Source of the DNA: Chitinophagales bacterium
Lineage (GTDB): Bacteria; Bacteroidota; Bacteroidia; Chitinophagales; JAHQVX01
NCBI GenBank assembly: GCA_965215685.1
Contig: OZ244113.1
Location: 2,606,256 to 2,670,255 of the forward strand
Direction of reading: 5' to 3'
Length of the DNA: 64,000 nt
Part shown: positions 2,521-33,887 of the stretch, piece after piece
How the letters are laid out: each line of letters starts with the position of its first letter
Position numbering within the stretch: the stretch's first letter is position 1
Program-made: the position numbers and the translations under genes
The notes under the pieces: model-generated
Told to the model about the DNA's origin: nothing
What the model saw: the letters and a program-made list of their open reading frames with translations, nothing else
Database searches by the model: none

Positions 2521-3756
2521 TTACTTTCCTTCGGACGCCATTTTTACCTTGTTCTTTGAAAAGGTGAAAAGTCCGATGCCGAGCGGCAGCAGTGCCGATG
2601 CAAGCGTTAACCATAGGTAGTACCCCGGTATAAAGCCCAGTTGCACCCAAAGCATAATACCCTGAACAAACAGAAGTAGTTCGCTTAAGATGAAACCAGC
2701 AAGAAAAAAGTAAACGCCATTTTTTTTCAAACCGCGGTCTAAATTCAGTACGCCATACTCGTGCATACACCCCAATAAGAAAGTACTCAGGGCACCGAGC
2801 ATTAGCAGGTGTATGAAGCCGATCACAAAGTTGTGAATAGTGTAACTAATAGTGGCAAAGTAGGGTATGGCTACCAGGGTTTGTATCACAATTTTAATAA
2901 TAAGGCAGACCAAGGCAATAAGCCATAAATAATGTGTTCGGAGAGCTACCTGCTCCCGTACTTGCCCAAAGATTATACGCAAAGGCTTCACGAATACCAT
3001 AAGAGCGGCCAGTTGAAGTATCACTCCTATGCTGTTTACCCAAAATATGGCTTTATCAGGCGTACTCCAGGTAACGGCAAGGGCATACGTAAGCAGGCAG
3101 GAAATTACCAACAACCAGTAAAACCAATGGAGTGACCTGGATTTTATATGTACATTTTGCCGCTTTGCATGGTCGAAAAAGAGCGCAATAACTGCAAATA
3201 TGAACCAACCGTTAAATTGAAAGTGCAGAAAGAACTGAACGGCATTGTAGTACCATTTACTTCTGGCCAGCTCACTTTGCATCATTGGACCCAAAGCCCA
3301 TGTTGCCAGTGTAGATAAGAATAAAAAAAATAAAGCCGTTTTCACAAACCTCACCGAAAACCCCTTTCTGCCGCTTCGCTTTATATCTTTACAGATACGG
3401 TAAATAAAGACATAGCTAAGCAGTAAATGAGCTGTGGTAAACAAGATAGATGGTAAGGCATAACCGAAGAATGGAAAAGTTAGCAACATGCCTAAAACGC
3501 TCAGCTGAATCAACCAGAATAAAATGCTGTATGTCTTCGTCCACTTACCGAAAGCTTTAACTATGAAAATGTAAAGTGCTCCGAAAAGCCAACCCATCAT
3601 GGCAATATGAGAGTGGGCATGCAAAACATTTTTATACTTTAAAGGCAACTCAATAACAAAGGCCAGGCGTAATCCTGCTCCAAGAAGAGCCGCTATAAAG
3701 AAATTCAGCAGCACCACTTTTACATAGAGCCGCAATTTGACATTGGGTACAGACAA
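2521..3756 (-). CDS. Polytopic His-rich membrane protein, possibly NnrS-like (NO-response) and part of the nos neighbourhood
   Basis: 411 aa with about 12 predicted TM segments and conserved His clusters (HAHSHIAMMGW). Co-directional with the cytochrome c and Rrf2 genes upstream of nosZ. The family assignment is an inference. Confidence 0.45.
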   Translation of the reverse strand: MSVPNVKLRLYVKVVLLNFFIAALLGAGLRLAFVIELPLKYKNVLHAHSHIAMMGWLFGALYIFIVKAFGKWTKTYSILFWLIQLSVLGMLLTFPFFGYALPSILFTTAHLLLSYVFIYRICKDIKRSGRKGFSVRFVKTALFFLFLSTLATWALGPMMQSELARSKWYYNAVQFFLHFQFNGWFIFAVIALFFDHAKRQNVHIKSRSLHWFYWLLVISCLLTYALAVTWSTPDKAIFWVNSIGVILQLAALMVFVKPLRIIFGQVREQVALRTHYLWLIALVCLIIKIVIQTLVAIPYFATISYTIHNFVIGFIHLLMLGALSTFLLGCMHEYGVLNLDRGLKKNGVYFFLAGFILSELLLFVQGIMLWVQLGFIPGYYLWLTLASALLPLGIGLFTFSKNKVKMASEGK

Positions 3757-5024: not shown

Positions 5025-7010
5025 ATGAAAAAATCAACCTTAACCAGTACAGTTACATTCCTGTTAGTTTGTTTCTTTATATCTGCTTTAACGGTAAGCT
5101 GCAACAACTCGGGCAATGGAAGTTCGGGAGGTGGAGCTTTAAGCGGAGATGCTGCGTCGGCAGTATATGTAGCACCCGGTGAACACGATGAGTTTTACGG
5201 CTTTATGTCCGGAGGCTTTAGCGGCCAAATTAGCGTTTACGGCCTTCCCAGCGGGCGCTTGCTAAAAGTGATACCTGTTTTTTCTCAAGACGCAGAAAAG
5301 GGTTATGGCTACAATGAAGAAACAAAGCCAATGCTTAACACATCTTTCGGATTTGTACCCTGGGATGATGCACACCACCCGGAGTTATCACAAACCGATG
5401 GTGAAACTGACGGACGTTGGATTTTTATTAACGGCAACAACACACCACGTGTGGCAAGGGTTGATCTAAGCACATTTGAAACTGCCGAGATCATTGAAAT
5501 ACCTAACAGCGGAGGTAACCACAGTTCACCTTTTACAACAGAAAATACCGAATACGTGGTGGCAGGCACCCGTTTTAGCGTGCCTTATCCGCAAAAGGAT
5601 GTTGCTATAAGCAGTTACCAGGAAAACTTTAAAGGCATGCTCACCTTTATTAAAGTAGGCGATGATGGTGAAATGAATATTGCTTTTCAGGTATTACTTC
5701 CTGCTTTTGACTATGACCTTGCCCACTCCGGTAAAGGTGATTCACACGGCTGGACATTCTTTACAACCTATAATACCGAGCAGTCACATACTCTTAAAGA
5801 AGTAAACGCTTCACAGAACGATAAGGATTTTATTGCCGCTATTAATTGGAAAAAAGCAGAGGAATATATTGCTGCCGGAAACTATGAAGAAATTCCTGCC
5901 AAGCACATGGTAAACCGATATAGTGATAAAACACACATGGCTACTTCTACCGAAGTGCCTACTGTTAAAGTGCTTAAGCCTGAAGATTGCCCGGGTTTGG
6001 TTTATTTCTTACCAACTCCTAAATCTCCTCACGGAGTAGATGTTGATCCAACCGGCGAATACATTGTAGGTAGTGGTAAACTTAGTGCCGACCTTACGGT
6101 TCACTCTTTCTCAAAAATGCTTACAGCTATTGAGAACGAAGCTTTTGAAACTACTATTGAAAGCGTTCCCGTACTTAAATATGATGAAGTTGTGGCCGGA
6201 GTGGTTGAAAAACCGGGCCTCGGACCTTTGCATACCGAGTTTGATAATAAAGGCAATGCCTACACAACGTTCTTCATTTCATCAGAAGTGGTTAAATGGA
6301 AAGTAGGAACCTGGGAAGTGCTTGACAGAGTACCTACTTACTACTCTGTAGGTCACTTAATGATACCTGGCGGCGACTCCAAAAAACCACAGGGTAAGTA
6401 CTTAGTGGCCTTGAATAAGATCACTAAAGACCGTTATCTGCCAACCGGCCCGGAAATGAACCATAGTGCGCAACTCTATGATATTAGTGGCGATAAAATG
6501 AAGTTGCTATCTGACTTTCCAACGGTTGGTGAACCTCACTACGCACAGGGTATTTCTGCTGATAGAATTAAGCCAAAGAGTAAGAAATTCTTCCCTATTG
6601 AAGAGAATGAACACCCTTACGCCGCTAAAGGCGAAGGAGAAACAAAAGTGGTTCGTAGTGGAAATACAGTGCATGTATATATGACATCTATAAGAAGTCA
6701 CTTTGCACCGGATAATATTGAAGGAATAAGAGTTGGCGATGAAGTTTATGTTCACTTAACCAACTTAGAACAAGATTTTGACGTACCGCACGGCCTGGCA
6801 ATACAAGGTGCCAGAAACTCAGAACTTTTGGTTATGCCGGGTCAAACCGAAACTATGTTGTGGAGGCCACAACGCGAGGGAGTTTATTCTTTCTACTGTA
6901 CCGATTTCTGTTCTGCACTTCACCAGGAAATGCAAGGTTATATTCGTGTTTCTCCAAGAGGAGCTAACACGCCTGTTAAATGGAGTGTAGGAGAGACTGA
7001 AGATGAATAG
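5025..7010 (+). CDS. nosZ: Nitrous-oxide reductase NosZ, clade II (Sec/lipoprotein signal)
   Basis: 661 aa. N-terminal Sec/lipoprotein-type signal with Cys and no twin-arginine. Multiple His ligands of the seven-bladed CuZ domain. C-terminal cupredoxin CuA motif CTDFCSALHQEMQGY. Confidence 0.95.
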   Translation: MKKSTLTSTVTFLLVCFFISALTVSCNNSGNGSSGGGALSGDAASAVYVAPGEHDEFYGFMSGGFSGQISVYGLPSGRLLKVIPVFSQDAEKGYGYNEETKPMLNTSFGFVPWDDAHHPELSQTDGETDGRWIFINGNNTPRVARVDLSTFETAEIIEIPNSGGNHSSPFTTENTEYVVAGTRFSVPYPQKDVAISSYQENFKGMLTFIKVGDDGEMNIAFQVLLPAFDYDLAHSGKGDSHGWTFFTTYNTEQSHTLKEVNASQNDKDFIAAINWKKAEEYIAAGNYEEIPAKHMVNRYSDKTHMATSTEVPTVKVLKPEDCPGLVYFLPTPKSPHGVDVDPTGEYIVGSGKLSADLTVHSFSKMLTAIENEAFETTIESVPVLKYDEVVAGVVEKPGLGPLHTEFDNKGNAYTTFFISSEVVKWKVGTWEVLDRVPTYYSVGHLMIPGGDSKKPQGKYLVALNKITKDRYLPTGPEMNHSAQLYDISGDKMKLLSDFPTVGEPHYAQGISADRIKPKSKKFFPIEENEHPYAAKGEGETKVVRSGNTVHVYMTSIRSHFAPDNIEGIRVGDEVYVHLTNLEQDFDVPHGLAIQGARNSELLVMPGQTETMLWRPQREGVYSFYCTDFCSALHQEMQGYIRVSPRGANTPVKWSVGETEDE

Positions 7011-7130: not shown

Positions 7131-7790
7131 ATGAAAACATTAAATTTTGAACAATTAAAAGTTGCTGAAGTAGTTGCCGAGAACCTTAAAGCAGCACATG
7201 TTTTTAAAAAACATGGCATTGACTTTTGCTGCGGTGGTGGAATCACCCTTGCCAAAGCCTGTGAGAAGAACAAGGTGAATGCCGATGAATTAAAACGTGA
7301 ATTATTAAACCTTGATGCATCTGATACAAGTGGATTGGATTTTACTTCCATGGCCTCGAAGGACCTGGTTGAACATATTGTAAACACACACCACAACTAC
7401 GTCAGGGAGTCAATTCCGGTTATAACTGCTTACGCCGAAAAGGTGGCAAAAGTACACGGGCAGCACAACCCCGAATTACTGCAAATACGCGACAGGTTTA
7501 AAAAATTCGGTGAGGAATTGCTAGATCATTTGAAGGGCGAAGAAGAACAATTATTCCCTAAAATTGAGAAAGGAGAATCATTAAATACCGAGGAATTTAT
7601 AGATGAACATGAAGATGCCAGTCAAAATCTCCTGGCCCTGCGAAAACTCACCAACGATTTCACACCACCCGAACACGCATGCAATACCTACCGTGCCTTG
7701 TTTGATAAATTAGAAGAATTTGAAGACGATTTGCACGTGCATATTCACTTAGAAAACAACATTCTGTTTAAAAAGGGTAAAGAAAGCTAA
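7131..7790 (+). CDS. RIC/ScdA/YtfE-type di-iron protein (repair of iron centres)
   Basis: N-terminal ScdA_N motif (HGIDFCCGG). C-terminal hemerythrin-like His/Glu-rich domain. Confidence 0.75.
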   Translation: MKTLNFEQLKVAEVVAENLKAAHVFKKHGIDFCCGGGITLAKACEKNKVNADELKRELLNLDASDTSGLDFTSMASKDLVEHIVNTHHNYVRESIPVITAYAEKVAKVHGQHNPELLQIRDRFKKFGEELLDHLKGEEEQLFPKIEKGESLNTEEFIDEHEDASQNLLALRKLTNDFTPPEHACNTYRALFDKLEEFEDDLHVHIHLENNILFKKGKES

Positions 7791-7842: not shown

Positions 7843-8424
7843 ATGAAAAAACACCAAATATTACTCATTCTGGCCGGACTATTATTGTTGATCCTTTGGG
7901 TTGTACCTATGTGGAAGATAAACTTACAGGCACCTCAATACCCCGATGGGGTTGAAATGCACATCCACATTAACAAGATTGGCGGCAGTGAGCCTGGTAC
8001 ACTTCAGAACATTAACATACTGAACCACTATGTAGGCATGAAAGAGATAAAGCCTGAAAGCATTCCGGAGCTGAAAATCTTTCCATGGGTAATTATGGGC
8101 TTTATAGCTTTGGCTATTATTTGTGCTTTAATTAATAAGCGTTGGTCTTTCATTTTTTGGCCTTTGTTGTACCTGGCGGCCATCATATTTGGTATGTACG
8201 ACTTCTATCTATGGGAATTTGATTATGGCCATAACTTAGATCCCAACGCTATTATGAAATTCGATGTGGATTCTTATCAGCCACCCCTTATCGGCACTAA
8301 AAAGTTATTGAATTTTACGGCAAGTTCGTATCCGCATTGGGGAGGTTGGGCCATGATAGTTTCGTTAGCTCTTGCTGTGTGGGCTGCCGTTGTAAAATTT
8401 AAACGTACGAAGCATGGAGCTTAA
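7843..8424 (+). CDS. Small integral membrane protein, NosB-like accessory of clade II nos clusters (tentative)
   Basis: 193 aa with about 4 TM helices. Sits between nosZ/RIC and nosL. Overlaps nosL by 11 nt. Confidence 0.45.
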   Translation: MKKHQILLILAGLLLLILWVVPMWKINLQAPQYPDGVEMHIHINKIGGSEPGTLQNINILNHYVGMKEIKPESIPELKIFPWVIMGFIALAIICALINKRWSFIFWPLLYLAAIIFGMYDFYLWEFDYGHNLDPNAIMKFDVDSYQPPLIGTKKLLNFTASSYPHWGGWAMIVSLALAVWAAVVKFKRTKHGA

Positions 8425-8857
8425 TAAGGCTATTCTCATTTGCATGGCATTTCTATTTGCTTCCTGCGGTGTTAAGCCCAAACCTATCAACTACAACGAG
8501 GACCAGTGCCATGCCTGTAAAATGATAATAAGTGACAGTCGTTTTGGTGCAGAGTTGGTGACTAAAAAGGGAAAAATATACAAGTACGACGCTATAGAGT
8601 GCATGGTACCGGTAATAAGATCAAACAGCGAGGATGATTATGCGTATATTATGGTTACTGATTTCCATAAACCCGGCAAGCTGATCGATGCCACATCGGC
8701 AACCTATCTGCAAAGCGAAAATTTACCCAGCCCTATGGGCGGATGTTTAAGCGCGTACAAAGATCCTGTGGCCGGAGTAAAAGCAGAAGTGGAATTTAGT
8801 GGTGAGGTTTATAAATGGAACGAATTGAAGGAAAGTGTTAAGATGCAGTATCCATGA
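8414..8857 (+). CDS. nosL: NosL copper-chaperone lipoprotein
   Basis: Lipoprotein signal LFASCGV. About 150 aa with Cys/Met-containing motif (HACKMI). Positioned within the nos cluster. Confidence 0.7.
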   Translation: MELNKAILICMAFLFASCGVKPKPINYNEDQCHACKMIISDSRFGAELVTKKGKIYKYDAIECMVPVIRSNSEDDYAYIMVTDFHKPGKLIDATSATYLQSENLPSPMGGCLSAYKDPVAGVKAEVEFSGEVYKWNELKESVKMQYP

Positions 8858-8867
8858 TAGAGAATTA

Positions 8868-9137
8868 TCATACCACAATGGAGTTTTGTTTTTTAACCAA
8901 TGAATGGAGGAACTCCGGTGCAAAATCAGCTCCGTTCTTCCACTCAATAGTCCATCTGTTCAATCGAAAAGCCTTGAATTCTGCCTCGTTCAACAAAGGT
9001 TTAAAAACAGGTCCATGAAGGTGATCCTGCAGATCTACAGACCCTTTCAGACCATCATTAAAGGTAAGCGAAAGTTTAAACTCGCCTATATATTTGACTT
9101 CCGTTACTTTTAATAACATTTTAAATAAGTGGTTCAA
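8868..9137 (-). CDS. DUF2442 family protein
   Basis: 89 aa, matching the size and family profile of DUF2442. Immediately downstream of a DUF4160 gene on the same strand, which is the usual pairing. Confidence 0.6.
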   Translation of the reverse strand: MNHLFKMLLKVTEVKYIGEFKLSLTFNDGLKGSVDLQDHLHGPVFKPLLNEAEFKAFRLNRWTIEWKNGADFAPEFLHSLVKKQNSIVV

Positions 9138-10619
9138 TTTTCTTTAACATCTCGTGCGCCCTTGCAAGTTCCCAATTTTCCAGCAATTCGTTTTTATGTA
9201 TTGCTAACCAATCAAAAACAAGATTTTAAGCTCTTCGGGGCATTTCTCCTGAAACAATTCCTGACTCAATTTCAACAGTGGCTTCGTAATCTTGATATTC
9301 AATATGGAAATGTGGCGGATTCTGATTGTTGTAAAACATTCTTATCACAATTCCATGGAACCTACATATTTCGGGTATTTTCCGGATATAAAAAGATACT
9401 TTCAACTTTATGCTTTCTGTTGCTTTTTCCCTTTGTCGAATATGCTCAAGTAGAAATTTGTCCAACCTGCCCGGTTAAAAAAATTAAAGAAGGAATAGAT
9501 CAGGCAAAACCTTATTCCACCTTAACTATTAATGGCGGTGAATATCAGGTCGAAAACCTTGTAATAGACAAGCCCATTAAAATCACAGGGAAAAACAACC
9601 CCCGCATCATTTCCAGATCGGGAGATGAAGTGTTTACCATTTTGGCCGATAGCGTAACCATTAAAAACCTGCATATTAGCGGAGTAACCACGAGCTATTT
9701 GAAGGAACGCTCCGGTATTAGAATAAAACGGGCCAATCACTTCAGCATTGAAAATAATATTCTTGAAAACTGCTTCTTTGCAGTTTATTTGGAGCGTGGT
9801 AAACACGGAAAGGTTAAGGGCAACATACTAAAAGGCAATGCCACTACGGAAGCGGAAAGCGGAAACGGCATTCACGCCTGGTATTGTGATAATATACTTA
9901 TAGAAGACAATGAGATTTACGGCCACAGAGATGGTATTTACTTTGAATTTGTAAACGAGAGTATGATCCGGAATAATCATAGTGAGCGCAACAGACGTTA
10001 TGGTCTGCACTATATGTTTTCCAACGATGATGAATACGTAAACAACACCTTTGTGAACAATGGAGTAGGCGTGGCCGTAATGTTTTCACGACGCATTAAT
10101 ATGAGCCACAATATTTTCAAAAATAATTGGGGAAAGGCAGCTTACGGCCTGTTGTTAAAAGAGATATATGATGCTGAAATTGAGCATAACGAATTTGACC
10201 AAAACACCGTGGGCATTTTCGTTGAAGGCTCTAACCGTATCAATTACCGGTACAACGATTTTAAGAGCAATGGCTGGGCACTTAAATTTTCGGGTGGCTG
10301 CGAGGCCAATGATGTAACCGAAAATAATTTTTTAAACAACTCCCTTGATCTGGTGGTGAGTGCTTCACATTCCGACAATAAATTCCATCATAATTATTGG
10401 AGTAACTATACCGGTTATGATCTTAACAAAGATGGAATTGGCGATGTGCCATATTATCCAGTAAAGCTTTTTTCTTACATTATCGAAAAATCGCCTGATG
10501 CTATTGTGTTAATGCGTAGCTTGTTTGTGGAGTTGGTTAACTTTTCAGAAAAAGTAAGCCCTGTATTTACTCCAAAAAATGTTTTTGATGAATATCCATT
10601 AATGCAAGAAGTAAAATGA
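9129..10619 (+). CDS. nosD: NosD periplasmic copper-binding beta-helix protein (5' boundary uncertain)
   Basis: Repeated parallel beta-helix motifs (NNxxxxNxxxGxxL) throughout. Signal-peptide-like segment STLCFLLLFPFVEYAQ appears only about 90 codons into the ORF, with no in-frame ATG nearby. The first about 340 nt overlap the antisense DUF4160 gene. Confidence 0.8.
   Translation: MVQFSLTSRAPLQVPNFPAIRFYVLLTNQKQDFKLFGAFLLKQFLTQFQQWLRNLDIQYGNVADSDCCKTFLSQFHGTYIFRVFSGYKKILSTLCFLLLFPFVEYAQVEICPTCPVKKIKEGIDQAKPYSTLTINGGEYQVENLVIDKPIKITGKNNPRIISRSGDEVFTILADSVTIKNLHISGVTTSYLKERSGIRIKRANHFSIENNILENCFFAVYLERGKHGKVKGNILKGNATTEAESGNGIHAWYCDNILIEDNEIYGHRDGIYFEFVNESMIRNNHSERNRRYGLHYMFSNDDEYVNNTFVNNGVGVAVMFSRRINMSHNIFKNNWGKAAYGLLLKEIYDAEIEHNEFDQNTVGIFVEGSNRINYRYNDFKSNGWALKFSGGCEANDVTENNFLNNSLDLVVSASHSDNKFHHNYWSNYTGYDLNKDGIGDVPYYPVKLFSYIIEKSPDAIVLMRSLFVELVNFSEKVSPVFTPKNVFDEYPLMQEVK
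9226..9465 (-). CDS. DUF4160 family protein
   Basis: NPPHFHIEY motif characteristic of DUF4160. About 80 aa. The true start is probably internal to the called ORF. Confidence 0.6.
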   Translation of the reverse strand: MDKFLLEHIRQREKATESIKLKVSFYIRKIPEICRFHGIVIRMFYNNQNPPHFHIEYQDYEATVEIESGIVSGEMPRRA

Positions 10620-10772
10620 TTGTTTTTAACCACGGAGTAAAACAGAGTTGGCCACAAAGTATCAAAGAGTTGTTATTCAAACGCGCGTATTTAACTCTGT
10701 GTAACTCCGTTTTTACTTTGTGTAACTCTGTGGTTATTTCAGTAACAACTAAAATTCGCGGTTAACTTTCAC

Positions 10773-11501
10773 ATGATCCGATTTCAAAACATACATAAGA
10801 AGTTTGGTAAAAACCATGTGCTTAAAGGCATTGACCTACAGTTCGCTGGGGGAGGAATAACTGCTATCCTGGGTCCCAACGGATCAGGTAAAACCACTTT
10901 AATCAAATGTTTACTGGGTTTGGTCATCCCCGATAGTGGAGATATACAGTTCAACAGCCACTCAATTAAAGGTCAATTCAACTACCGAAACCAGCTTTCA
11001 CATCTTCCGCAAATAGCTCGTTTTCCCGAAAACCTTACCGTTTCCGAAGTCATTAAAATGATTAGGGACTTACGTCCGGGGGAAACAAATGAAACTCACT
11101 TTATTCAACTTTTTAATCTGGATGAACACCTAAAGAAAAAGATGCGGAACCTGTCCGGAGGTACCAGACAAAAAGTGAATATTTTATTGGCTTTAATGTA
11201 TGATAGTCCGGTTATAATCTTAGATGAACCCAGCACTGGCCTTGATCCGCTGGCACTCATTAACCTTAAAGAACACCTTGCACAGGAAAAAGCAAAAGGC
11301 AAGCTCATTCTTATTACAACCCATAGTATGAACTTTGTGCAGGAAATGGCAGATAACATTGTGTTTCTGTTGGAAGGAGAGATCTATTTCAACGGAACGA
11401 AAGAACAACTGTTGGATGAACAAGGAGCGAATAAGGTGGAAGAGGCCATTGCCAATATTTTCAGGAAAGAAGGTGTAGAGCAACACAAACCAGTAAATTG
11501 A
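10773..11501 (+). CDS. nosF: NosF ABC transporter ATP-binding protein
   Basis: Walker A GPNGSGKTT. ABC signature LSGGTRQK. Walker B ILDEP. Confidence 0.85.
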   Translation: MIRFQNIHKKFGKNHVLKGIDLQFAGGGITAILGPNGSGKTTLIKCLLGLVIPDSGDIQFNSHSIKGQFNYRNQLSHLPQIARFPENLTVSEVIKMIRDLRPGETNETHFIQLFNLDEHLKKKMRNLSGGTRQKVNILLALMYDSPVIILDEPSTGLDPLALINLKEHLAQEKAKGKLILITTHSMNFVQEMADNIVFLLEGEIYFNGTKEQLLDEQGANKVEEAIANIFRKEGVEQHKPVN

Positions 11502-11671
11502 AGGGGATGAAAGATTTATTAACCGCAATGTACACAATGTTACCCGCGGTGTTTCGCAATGTTCATCGTGACCATTGTGCTATACTTTGTGCAACATTGT
11601 GGTTATCACTCGGCATGCTCAGGAGAGTTTCACAGAGTATTTTTTAAGGGAAAAGAAAGGCCCTAAAGAGA

Positions 11672-12454
11672 ATGTTTAAAATCTTCAAATACAGTTTTCA
11701 GGACATGGTGCGCAACCGGTGGATGTTCATTTATCTTGGCTTTTACCTGTTGCTCACTTTAGGGCTATTGTTTCTGAGCCATGATGTGACCAAGGTTATT
11801 GTAAGCCTTACCAATATCATTCTCATTCTAACGCCGCTCATTGGAATCCTGTTTGGAGCCATGTATTACTACAACTCGCGTGAGTTTATAGAATTGTTAT
11901 TGGCACAACCATTGTCGCGTACGTCCATTTTTACCGGCTTGTACATGGGTTTGGTATCTTCTTTATCGCTTAGCCTTTTACTTGGGGTGGGTTTACCGAT
12001 GATCTTGTTCGGGATATTCTCATCACCCATGCTAAATACCTTTCTTATTCTGCTGGCCATGGGTGTTGTACTCACCATCATTTTCTCTGGCATTGCCTTT
12101 TTAATTGCCGTTAGGCATGAAAACAAGATAAGGGGACTGGGCATTGTTATATTTACCTGGCTTTTCTTTGCAATTATTTATGATGGCATAGTTCTATTGC
12201 TGCTTTTATTTCTTAAGGATTACCCTCTTGAGAAACTCAGCGTTGGACTCACATCATTCAACCCGATTGACCTGTCAAGAATTCTAATTTTGTTAAAGTT
12301 AGATGTTTCGGCTATGATGGGCTATACCGGTGCTGTTTTTCAAAAATTCTTTGGTAGCGGCACGGGGTCTCTAATTGTGATAGGCATCCTACTTCTATGG
12401 ATGGTGCTGCCGTTTTTGTGGATGCTGAGGCTGGCTAAGAAAAGAGATTTTTAA
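11672..12454 (+). CDS. nosY: NosY ABC-2 type permease
   Basis: 260 aa with six TM segments. Directly follows nosF. Confidence 0.8.
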   Translation: MFKIFKYSFQDMVRNRWMFIYLGFYLLLTLGLLFLSHDVTKVIVSLTNIILILTPLIGILFGAMYYYNSREFIELLLAQPLSRTSIFTGLYMGLVSSLSLSLLLGVGLPMILFGIFSSPMLNTFLILLAMGVVLTIIFSGIAFLIAVRHENKIRGLGIVIFTWLFFAIIYDGIVLLLLLFLKDYPLEKLSVGLTSFNPIDLSRILILLKLDVSAMMGYTGAVFQKFFGSGTGSLIVIGILLLWMVLPFLWMLRLAKKRDF

Positions 12455-12919: not shown

Positions 12920-14566
12920 CTTCATCAAATTTTATATTTGGACACTTCTGTTTTTCATAATCAATTGATTTACATTTAATTGTATTTTTTTAATTTCTTA
13001 AATTGGGTGTTAATTGATGTTTTGTAGCTTCATATAGTGTTTGTTAGAAAGCTGAAACATCCAAACGGCAGGACCTATATTCAGGTCATTGAAAAGAAAG
13101 CGGGTAAATTTCTTGTCAAAAAGAGTTTTGGTTCAGCCATATCGGCTACTGATATGGAAAAATTAGTCAAAAAAGCCGAAGGTTGGATTGAAAACACCAC
13201 AGGTTCACTTGAGTTTGATTTTGACAATGAGTCTGCTATTTATCAAAACCTGCTCAATAATATTACCTCTCACAAGCTTGTGGGTATTGATCTTGTTTTG
13301 GGCAAAATATTTGACCAAATAGGGTTTAATAAGATTGAAGACAATCTTTTTCGCCATCTTGTATTGTACAGATTGGTTTATCCAAAAAGTAAATTAAAAA
13401 CCACAGAATATCTGTACCGTTATGAACAAAAGCAATATAGCGAAAACGATATTTATCGCTACATGGATAAGTTGTATGCTACACAGAAAGAGTTGGCTCA
13501 AGATATCAGCTACCGGCACACACTAAAAGTATTGAATGGTAAAATTAGTGTGGTGTTTTATGATGTAACTACTATATACTTTGAGATAGACAAAGATGAT
13601 GAATTGCGAAAAACCGGTTTTTCCAAAGATGGCAAGCATCAAAACCCCCAAATTGTATTGGGTTTGTTGGTTAGCCGGGATGGATACCCGTTGGCTTATG
13701 AAATATTTGAAGGTAATAAGTTTGAAGGACATACCATGCTACCTGTCATTGAATCTTTTAGAAAAAAATACAAGCTTGCTAAACTCATTATAGTGGCAGA
13801 CTCCGGCTTGCTGTCAAAACAAAACATGGAAGATCTTCAATCAAATGGCTATGAGTTTATACTTGGCGCAAGAATAAAAAATGAAAGCAAGCCAATAAAA
13901 GAACAGATAGAAAAACTAAAACTTAAAAATGGAGAAAGTGCTGTTATAGACAAAGATGGCTTACGGCTTATTATTACCTATTCCAACAAAAGAGCCATTA
14001 AAGATGAGTACAATCGAAAAAAGGGGATTAAAAGACTTGAAAAACAGCTTAAAACCGGTCGACTTACTAAAGCCCATATCAACAAAAGAGGCTACAATAA
14101 ATTTTTAAAAATGCAAGGAGGTATTTCTATATCCATAGACCGACAAAAGGTGAAGCAAGATATAAGATGGGATGGTTTGAAAGGCTACATCACTAATGCT
14201 CAATTAAACACCGATGAGTTAATGGATAATTACCAGCAACTATGGCAAATAGAAAAAGCCTTTAGGATAGCAAAAACGGAGTTAAAAATACGCCCTGTAT
14301 TCCATTACAAGCAACGTAGAGTAGAAGCACATATATGCCTAAATTTTGTGGCCTACAAGGTCTATAAAGAATTAGAACGTCAACTGAAAGAAAAACAAAC
14401 TAATATGAGTGCTTCAAAAGCCATTGAAATTGCGCAAAACATATATCAAATTGAAGTAACCACGCCTAAAACAAAAAAGAAACTTAAAAAAATACTACTA
14501 TTTACAAGTGAGCAAAGGCAATTAGCCCAATTGTTTGATTTTGGGTGTTAATTTGCGGAAGTCAGG
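12915..14566 (+). mobile_element. IS1634/IS4-family insertion sequence (about 1.65 kb)
   Basis: Imperfect terminal inverted repeats: left CCTGACTTCATCAAATT, right reverse-complement CCTGACTTCCGCAAATT. Single 504-aa transposase. Flanked by a 384-bp target-site duplication. Confidence 0.75.
13037..14551 (+). CDS. IS4/IS1634-family DDE transposase
   Basis: 504 aa. N-terminal region typical of IS1634-like transposases. C-terminal DDE-type core with K/R-rich tail. Confidence 0.7.
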   Translation: MFVRKLKHPNGRTYIQVIEKKAGKFLVKKSFGSAISATDMEKLVKKAEGWIENTTGSLEFDFDNESAIYQNLLNNITSHKLVGIDLVLGKIFDQIGFNKIEDNLFRHLVLYRLVYPKSKLKTTEYLYRYEQKQYSENDIYRYMDKLYATQKELAQDISYRHTLKVLNGKISVVFYDVTTIYFEIDKDDELRKTGFSKDGKHQNPQIVLGLLVSRDGYPLAYEIFEGNKFEGHTMLPVIESFRKKYKLAKLIIVADSGLLSKQNMEDLQSNGYEFILGARIKNESKPIKEQIEKLKLKNGESAVIDKDGLRLIITYSNKRAIKDEYNRKKGIKRLEKQLKTGRLTKAHINKRGYNKFLKMQGGISISIDRQKVKQDIRWDGLKGYITNAQLNTDELMDNYQQLWQIEKAFRIAKTELKIRPVFHYKQRRVEAHICLNFVAYKVYKELERQLKEKQTNMSASKAIEIAQNIYQIEVTTPKTKKKLKKILLFTSEQRQLAQLFDFGC

Positions 14567-33039: not shown

Positions 33040-33300
33040 CCTACATCTTCAATGTAGTGCTCTACCAACTGAGCTATTCCGATTCGTGGTCGGAAACGGG
33101 AATCGAACCCGCGCATCAGGGGCTATTGTTCTATCCACTGAACTATCCCGAAATAATATCGGGAGCAGGAGTCGAACCTGCGACCTATAGCATGGCGACA
33201 AAACCAATCAACTACAAACGGCATATAACATTCCATAGGAGCTACACCGCCGTGTTATACAGAAACACAAGCTGTAAGTTTGCTTGTATCATGTATTTTG
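33040..33300 (-). pseudogene. Cluster of degenerate tRNA-like fragments
   Basis: Reading the minus strand, the region contains in order:
- a tRNA-Phe(GAA) 5' half (acceptor, D arm, anticodon arm) lacking a T arm;
- a 65-nt tRNA-like unit with D arm, T arm and acceptor but a truncated anticodon arm;
- a T-arm plus 3'-acceptor fragment GCAGGTTCGACTCCTGCTCCCGATA;
- a 13-nt tRNA 5' start GGCGGTGTAGCTC. Confidence 0.55.
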
Positions 33301-33528
33301 TCAGACCCTTATTCCATTTGGAATAAGAGATTTTTTTGTATCAGAGTGATACTATTTTCAATATGTAAAGAACTTTCAAGTCGTCACGATGAGTTTAACG
33401 AACCATGAGACTGGAATTTGATCAGACCTATCCTTCGTCAGGCCAGGATGACGTCTGATCATAATAGCCATCCCGAACACCGTTGTTTACAACGGCTCGT
33501 CCCAAATGTTCGGGATGGCCTGGACTAG

Positions 33529-33612
33529 TGGGAGAGATTGGATTCGAACCAATTCAGCACGAAAGCACCGGATTTACAGTCCGGCACGGCTCTCCAACTC
33601 CGTCGCACTCCC
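33529..33612 (-). tRNA. tRNA-Tyr (anticodon GTA), long variable arm
   Basis: Manual fold. Acceptor GGGAGTG/CTCTCCC (one mismatch). D stem ACGG/CCGT. Anticodon stem CCGGA/TCCGG with loop CTGTAAA. Variable hairpin GTGCTTTCGTGC. T arm ATTGG-TTCGAAT-CCAAT. Confidence 0.75.
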
Positions 33613-33656
33613 AATTGTTGGTCAGGCAGGCCTTGAACCTGCTACCTCCAGAGTTG

Positions 33657-33728
33657 AAGCCGAAACAGGATTTGAACCTGTACCACCGAGTTCAAAACCC
33701 GGTATCCTTGCCATTGGACCATTCGGCT
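33657..33728 (-). tRNA. tRNA-Gln (anticodon TTG)
   Basis: Acceptor AGCCGAA/TTCGGCT. D arm GTCC-AATGGCAA-GGAT. Anticodon stem CCGGG/CTCGG with loop TTTTGAA. T arm ACAGG-TTCAAAT-CCTGT. Confidence 0.8.
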
Positions 33729-33734
33729 TAGAAG

Positions 33735-33808
33735 CGGTGACGGACGGACTTGAACCGACAATCCACTCGCAGACAACGAGGTACATTCACCAAATATGCT
33801 GCGCCACC
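33735..33808 (-). tRNA. tRNA-Asp-like (anticodon GTC), slightly non-canonical
   Basis: Acceptor GGTGGCG/CGTCACC (one GU). Anticodon loop TTGTCTG (position 37 is T). T stem with one T-T mismatch. Six-nt spacing to neighbours like the other array members. Confidence 0.55.
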
Positions 33809-33814
33809 ATCATG

Positions 33815-33887
33815 TATCAGGTACGGGGCTCGAACCCGTGTCTTCGCTGTGAAAGAGCGAGATCCTGGCCAACTAGACGAACCTGAC
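33815..33887 (-). tRNA. tRNA-Glu (anticodon TTC)
   Basis: GTCAGGT-TC-GTCTAGTTGGCCAGGA D arm closely resembling bacterial tRNA-Glu. Anticodon stem TCGCT/AGCGA with loop CTTTCAC. T arm ACGGG-TTCGAGC-CCCGT. Acceptor 3' strand ACCTGAT. Confidence 0.85.

Follow-up and report, generated by a model that had tools for sequence, protein, structure and literature searches.

A decayed DhiT/DhiA-type toxin-antitoxin cassette at the nosL-nosD junction of a Chitinophagales nos cluster, with a possible new start for nosD

The DUF4160 protein DhiT of Dickeya dadantii 3937 inhibits the growth of both Dickeya and E. coli, and co-expression of dhiTA in the native order is harmless; the pair is transcribed together, toxin first, and the complex acts as a repressor of its promoter (PMC8198452). 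A DUF4160/DUF2442 pair also raises the persistence of Thermus thermophilus plasmids, and a plasmid lacking the second open reading frame (ORF) of the pair could not be introduced (PMC12724237). In a comparative study, DUF4160 is listed among effector domains without a confident structural homologue (PMC12065111). Here we analyze a pair of this kind in a 64,000-nt stretch of a Chitinophagales bacterium genome (assembly GCA_965215685.1, contig OZ244113.1, positions 2,606,256 to 2,670,255; hereafter the window, to which all coordinates refer). The pair lies antisense at the junction of nosL and nosD in a clade II (Bacteroidota-type) nos cluster that was identified on the plus strand by Pfam/NCBIfam searches of the window ORFs. 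The account that we favor with moderate confidence is, as a whole, that of a decayed cassette at this junction, with nosD translated from an upstream in-frame start and carrying an N-terminal extension. A preliminary description of the locus, made from the sequence, had given the function of such pairs as unknown; this statement is outdated, DUF4160/DUF2442 being a validated DhiT/DhiA type II toxin-antitoxin pair (PMC8198452; PMC12724237).

A DUF4160-DUF2442 pair between nosL and nosD

Two minus-strand genes occupy the gap between the end of nosL (8857) and the NosD signal peptide (from 9390), in the places where the preliminary description had put two minus-strand ORFs. The first of these, at 8868-9119 (83 aa; ATG start at 9119, TGA stop at 8868-8870), is the dhiA-like antitoxin gene and matches DUF2442 (PF10387, E 2.5e-12). 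Its partner is listed mechanically as an ORF at 9465..9226, for which the match to DUF4160 (PF13711) has an E value of 2.2e-11. Homology runs on in frame past the TAA at 9228-9226 to a stop at 9123-9121 and places the real gene, the dhiT-like toxin pseudogene, at 9378..9121 (85 codons); when the in-frame stop is read through, the match improves to 4.8e-20 and covers positions 1-65 of the 65-position model. Both family assignments made previously, the DUF2442 partner and the NPPHFHIEY motif (here QNPPHFHIEY, within the DUF4160 ORF), are thus borne out by the Pfam matches and the motif itself. The overlap of nosD with the DUF4160 gene is likewise real, but its length, put at about 340 nt, is 250 nt (9129-9378) when the toxin gene is delimited by homology, and the NosD-like part (9390 onward) is not overlapped.

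The NCBIfam models NF048015/NF048016 recognize the toxin as a relative of DhiT (E 1.3e-18) and the antitoxin as a relative of DhiA (E 5.4e-11), with scores of 67.4 bits versus a cut-off of 100 and 43.2 bits versus a cut-off of 200, respectively, that is, below the equivalog thresholds; the pair is accordingly classified here, on sequence similarity, as a distant member of the DhiT/DhiA superfamily and not an equivalog. The gene order is toxin-first, with a 1-nt gap between the toxin stop (9123-9121) and the antitoxin ATG (9119-9117). PADLOC and PDB sequence searches with the pair gave no matches. By its predicted protein families and layout, the pair is identified as a type II toxin-antitoxin cassette of the DhiT/DhiA (DUF4160/DUF2442) superfamily, compact and with the toxin first, lying antisense at the nosL-nosD junction.

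Eight relatives (L001, L003, L005, L006 and L036-L039) carry canonical clade II nosLDFY clusters with the same order as in the window (nosZ, membrane protein, nosL, nosD, nosF, nosY) and 57-67% protein identity. In all eight, nosL is followed by an ATG-initiated nosD that starts between -4 and +31 nt from the nosL stop, with nothing between the two genes: they overlap as ATGA in L001 and L003 and are spaced by 4 nt in L038, 6 nt in L037, 12 nt in L039, 21 nt in L006, 29 nt in L005 and 31 nt in L036. The window has 532 nt from the nosL stop to the NosD signal peptide and no adjoining start codon. NosD homologues begin with M-K-K or similar, some 20 residues before a conserved V-x-V-C motif, and the window has Y-K-K-I-L-S-T-L there. 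The exception among the relatives is L002, with only in-frame TTG start candidates; the others examined have an ATG directly at the signal peptide. Because the eight relatives have nosL directly followed by an ATG-initiated nosD and no insert, the pair is an insertion, and the cassette separates nosD from its ancestral start. The suspicion voiced in the preliminary description, that nosD either uses an unusual start or has had its 5' end altered by the insertion, was right in substance, and the comparison with relatives lacking the pair, which it had suggested, supplies the eight insert-free clusters; relatives combining the same arrangement with a conventional nosD start, which it had named as counter-evidence, were looked for and none was found.

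The TGA stop of nosL forms part of an ATGA (8854-8857), the stop/start overlap by which nosL and nosD are also joined in L001 and L003, and the ATG at 8854..8856 (plus strand) is a candidate for the ancestral nosD start. Today this ATG is the first codon of a 54-codon ORF that runs opposite the antitoxin gene and out of frame with nosD. The simplest reconstruction of the empty site would be CCATGA|AAAAGATACTT, encoding MKKILSTL; the junction recreated if 8858-9390 is removed reads CCATGAAAAAGATA. This reconstruction would put the insert between nosD codons 1 and 2; an ancestral short spacer is equally possible. The inserted cassette (8858..9389, minus strand) spans about 530 bp, with each limit uncertain by about 10-20 nt, and holds just the two genes with some 10 nt of flank beyond each. 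Because only about 11 nt of native 5' flank precede the toxin start, the cassette probably lacks a promoter of its own. No target-site duplication, terminal inverted repeats or attC-like site was found at the insert ends (8858, 9389), and there is no second copy of the insert within the window.

No close relative or empty site was found in the genome-contig scan, where the best NosD identity is 64%, and the metagenome-contig scan yielded nothing useful; in a search of 5.8 billion proteins, the only NosD above 66% identity was that of the window, stored there as a 496-aa product of a 3.2-Mb contig. L039 was considered as a close relative on account of a NosZ with 90% protein identity and rejected, because its DNA is only 76% identical; it lacks the insert. 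L039 is a low-coverage contig in which the nos genes are split.

Decay of the toxin gene and conservation of NosD

A point absent from the preliminary description is the death of the toxin gene. Column conservation was determined from 110 toxin homologues, those with a length of exactly 85 aa among the 120 closest listed. All 110 begin with Met (most with MPEI) and the homologous genes all start with ATG; the start codon of the window toxin is ATA (9378-9376). The toxin deviates at 4 of the 30 columns conserved in at least 90% of the homologues, the changes being Met1 to Ile, Tyr8 to His, His19 to Gln and Leu51 to a stop (TAA 9228-9226); as many deviations at conserved columns occur in only one of the 110. 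The lesions include residues that are 100% conserved in this set, and His19 of the HxPPHFH motif is invariant. An alternative genetic code, under which this TAA would be read through, was rejected because TAA is the commonest genuine stop in the window (19 of 39 long ORFs). With the start ATG changed to ATA, His19 to Gln and Leu51 to a stop, the toxin gene is, to judge from these lesions, an inactivated pseudogene. The antitoxin keeps 21 of 22 conserved columns, typical for its family, and its gene looks like an intact orphan, an intactness that could be due to chance in so short a gene. The cassette is most likely a decaying remnant and not a working addiction or defense module.

The recognizable NosD sequence (9390-10619, plus strand) begins with the signal peptide (9390..9446), consisting of KK and the hydrophobic core ILSTLCFLLLFPFV, with no adjacent start codon. 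In the numbering of the ORF that opens at GTG 9129, the basic KK are codons 88-89 (9390) and the only hydrophobic core comprises residues 90-104, in line with the earlier placement of the frame opening at 9129 and of a signal-peptide-like segment at about codon 90. Bacteroidetes signal peptidase sites prefer Gln at +1. Because of this preference and the homologues, the likely predicted cleavage site is A106|Q107, giving a mature NosD, the beta-helix maturation protein for nitrous oxide reductase, encoded by 9447..10619.

This part of the gene is well conserved. The NosD model TIGR04247 scores 421.8 bits versus a cut-off of 300 and covers residues 119-493 of the 496-aa ORF, and PF05048 matches with an E value of 9e-34. 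NosD keeps 117 of 119 conserved columns, its two deviations comparing with a family median of 1 and a maximum of 6; the difference from the toxin (2 of 119 versus 4 of 30) is significant by Fisher test (p 0.015). The identity of NosD to the relatives (64-67%) is not below that of NosL, NosF and NosY, indicating no acceleration of the rate, and it matches the NosD identity of L037 and L038 to L001. By these comparisons NosD itself appears free of decay.

Candidate starts of nosD and rival accounts

Four canonical start codons lie in frame upstream of the signal peptide, namely GTG 9129, TTG 9162, TTG 9201 and GTG 9312, at 26-87 codons before it; ATA codons are present in frame at 9366 and 9396, and TTG 9420 falls inside the hydrophobic core. 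The earlier statement that no ATG, GTG or TTG is within reach described the ATA and the core TTG correctly but depends on how far reach is taken to extend; GTG 9312 and GTG 9129 are in frame without an intervening stop. GTG 9129 has the most start-like setting among these candidates: the region upstream of it is A-rich and unstructured, with a predicted folding energy of -1.8 kcal/mol, and a crude matrix derived from 30 ORF starts of the window ranks its context at the 95th percentile among all NTG triplets, compared with the 42nd for GTG 9312.

From GTG 9129 to the signal peptide (9129..9389, plus strand), the nosD frame runs for 87 codons antisense to the toxin pseudogene, and this stop-free stretch is the proposed N-terminal extension of pre-NosD. 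Across the pseudogene the nosD register has no stops, and each of the 19 distinct homologous toxin genes with DNA has between 1 and 7. Back-translation of the 110 homologues with the codon usage of the window left the frame open in 1.0% of trials (mean of 4.8 stops), and resampling of synonymous codons in the window's own toxin left it open in 6.8%; the window toxin protein is the 6th lowest of 111 for expected antisense stops. The antisense frame of the antitoxin is not depleted of stops (3 observed versus 4.9 expected). Phe16Tyr and Ile11Val were considered as selected removals of antisense stops and rejected, given that Tyr16 and Val11 occur in 48 and 35 of the 110 family members, respectively. 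Also rejected were the toxin-disabling mutations as openers of the nosD frame: inspection by hand shows that the plus strand neither gains nor loses a stop through the changes ATG to ATA and TTA to TAA.

We consider nosD to be still in use because NosD is undecayed, the frame is stop-free across the pseudogene and GTG 9129 resembles a start. Ribosomes would initiate further upstream in the same frame, on the strand opposite the dead toxin gene, most likely at GTG 9129 and alternatively at GTG 9312, so that pre-NosD would gain an N-terminal extension of 26-87 residues with a net positive charge. The extension would stay in the cytoplasm as a long n-region and the unchanged hydrophobic core would engage Sec, whereupon signal peptidase would cleave near A106|Q107 to give a normal mature NosD. 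The net charge of the 87-residue version is +4, and it contains no hydrophobic stretch that would compete with residues 90-104. More tentatively, and at somewhat less than even confidence, we propose that nosD was rescued by this new 5' coding region from the antisense strand of the dead toxin, the 87 codons being kept stop-free by selection.

With regard to signals within the insert, there is no plus-strand terminator-like site, and matches to sigma-70-type promoters in a promoter scan were at or below chance. The plus strand has a perfect match to the Bacteroidetes-type TAnnTTTG at 9089, which was rejected as a promoter because such matches occur at the chance rate and this one arises from the conserved K-Y-I codons of the antitoxin. 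Two plus-strand ORFs run antisense to the antitoxin gene, 8854-9018 (54 codons) and 8904-9113 (69 codons); the latter shares the frame of nosD and stops 16 nt short of GTG 9129. If translated, the two ORFs could reduce polarity across the insert.

The strongest competitor, which we regard as clearly less probable, is that the insertion killed nosD. With no usable start, no NosD would be made and NosZ would not be matured, the cluster would be in early decay and the open frame would be coincidental. The lack of any ATG, GTG or TTG within 26 codons of the signal peptide speaks for this outcome, the chance probability of the open frame, at 1-7%, is not negligible, and the other insertions in the cluster (the ScdA-like gene, the hairpins in two spacers and the IS1634 element next door, described below) fit relaxed constraint. 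What a silent nosD does not readily accommodate is the retention of 117 of the 119 conserved NosD columns, with a divergence matching that of the other Nos proteins, and the intactness of all other nos genes, while the adjoining toxin gene has had time for four changes at conserved positions.

Another route to NosD would be low-level translation from a near-cognate ATA by the signal peptide, which we deem unlikely. ATA 9396 and ATA 9366 are both in the nosD frame. ATA 9396 lies in an A-rich context ranked at the 95th percentile; a start there would yield M-LSTLCFLLLFPFVEYA|Q and drop the basic n-region. ATA 9366 would give M-FRVFSGYKK-ILSTL..., a conventional signal peptide with a basic n-region, from a context at the 14th percentile. 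Reporter measurements in E. coli put initiation at ATA at about 1% of the ATG level or below, and a start at either codon leaves the stop-free frame back to 9129 unexplained. We give still less credence to a sequence or assembly error that hides a normal start, whereby, for instance, a missing G would make the true sequence GGAT ATG AAA AAG, about 10 nt from the toxin start. A single base by the A5 run (9390) would indeed restore ATG AAA AAG, the MKK of the homologues; the rest of the window, however, has uninterrupted long ORFs and, unlike L039, shows no sign of an error-prone assembly, and under this account the register that is open in the present sequence would not be the true one and would be open purely by coincidence.

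Several points weigh against translation of nosD from an upstream start, the reading that we prefer. The frame statistics are modest. If the start is GTG 9312, only a short stretch needs to be open, and chance alone leaves it so in 41% of resamples (P 0.41); the closest toxin homologue has just one stop in the nosD register, so that zero is not extreme. The start-context score depends on the 30-ORF matrix, crude as it is. Signal peptides are not usually preceded by 87 residues, and an extension of this length could impair export. The toxin lesions could predate the insertion, which would void the argument from an intact NosD beside a decayed toxin, and with no relative above about 66% NosD identity the age of the insertion is not measurable.

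The presence of nosZ and nosDFYL is widely used to call N2O reducers from genomes. The present cluster looks complete to a gene caller and its database NosD is 496 aa long, 87 residues of which are antisense toxin sequence, and NosD may or may not be produced. If the extended start is true, a new coding sequence has arisen on the strand opposite a pseudogene, and the locus would be a natural case in which overprinting repaired an operon gene after a toxin-antitoxin insertion. The locus also illustrates cleanly how decay can strike the toxin first and leave a DhiA-type antitoxin as an orphan, and it shows how tightly promoter-poor cassettes can lodge at gene boundaries.

The surrounding cluster and related cassettes

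The cluster comprises, all on the plus strand, nosZ (5025-7010), an ScdA/hemerythrin-like gene (7131-7790), a membrane-protein gene (7843-8424), an intact nosL (8414-8857; 147 aa, Pfam NosL E 4.1e-10), nosD, placed between nosL and nosF, nosF (10773-11501) and nosY (11672-12454); the nos genes other than nosD are all intact. Some 580 nt downstream of nosY, and likewise on the plus strand, is a transposase gene of the IS1634 family (13037-14551, NCBIfam 3.1e-113). The gene at 7131-7790, between nosZ and the membrane-protein gene, combines ScdA_N and hemerythrin domains (repair-of-iron-centres type); its position is empty in L001, L037, L038 and L039, and it appears from this comparison to be a second lineage-specific insertion in the nos cluster.

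The spacers between nosD and nosF (10620-10772, 153 nt) and between nosF and nosY (11502-11671, 170 nt) each contain a hairpin-forming element of about 100 nt with the ends TTAACCRC...GYGGTTA and predicted RNA folds of -38.5 kcal/mol (z -2.6) and -46 kcal/mol (z -1.8). In L037 and L038, nosD/nosF and nosF/nosY overlap at the sites of these spacers. The elements have no match in Rfam and look like a small REP- or MITE-like repeat family. Elsewhere in the window, a tRNA gene cluster on the minus strand (33088-33887) contains Tyr, Gln and Glu genes by ARAGORN, and Rfam gives two further tRNA matches (33735-33808 and 33088-33152). A NosD homologue encoded on a 1.99-Mb ENA contig (P0014) is called as 709 aa, with tandem repeats of about 25 residues per unit in frame upstream of the signal peptide; here, too, sequence has been inserted immediately upstream of nosD.

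Among cassettes homologous to the one in the window, 21 loci are on viral contigs. In one locus (L041, 126-1510), a ParE-type module, a small ORF and a DUF4160-DUF2442 pair are stacked with overlapping ends, and the antitoxin stop directly abuts the start of paaB, another very tight lodging against an operon gene. In a Bacteroidia metagenome-assembled genome (L009), a direct repeat of about 52 nt with the hairpin GCGGGGATAAATCCCCGC brackets the cassette (about 2616-2668 and 3296-3350), an arrangement suggesting that repeats may have mediated its movement there.

The Bacteroidota and viral DUF4160-DUF2442 cassettes (L009-L011, L040, L041 and L015-L035) share 52-73% toxin and 55-65% antitoxin identity with the window pair, have an 85-aa toxin that comes first and is separated from the antitoxin by a gap of 5-7 nt, and are, like the window cassette, wedged tightly between unrelated genes. 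They differ from it in having intact, ATG-started toxins, in lying between genes and not between a start codon and a second codon, and in being co-directional with, or independent of, their neighbors, whereas the window cassette is antisense. Dickeya dhiTA resembles the window pair in its domains (DUF4160 toxin, DUF2442 antitoxin), toxin-first order, almost abutting genes and toxin of about 85 aa; the NCBIfam model, with 160 positions, suggests a DhiA about twice the length of the 83-aa window antitoxin, and the window copy differs in that its toxin is a pseudogene and no native promoter region accompanies the cassette. The Thermus module (PMC12724237) consists of tandem ORFs of 87 and 92 aa with the toxin first, compared to 85 and 83 codons in the window, and its second ORF is needed to tolerate the first; that module is plasmid-borne and functional, whereas the window copy is chromosomal, antisense within an operon and inactivated in its toxin. 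The locus holds a known kind of element, a DhiT/DhiA-superfamily cassette with a dead toxin, and what sets it apart is its position and the possible antisense rescue of nosD.

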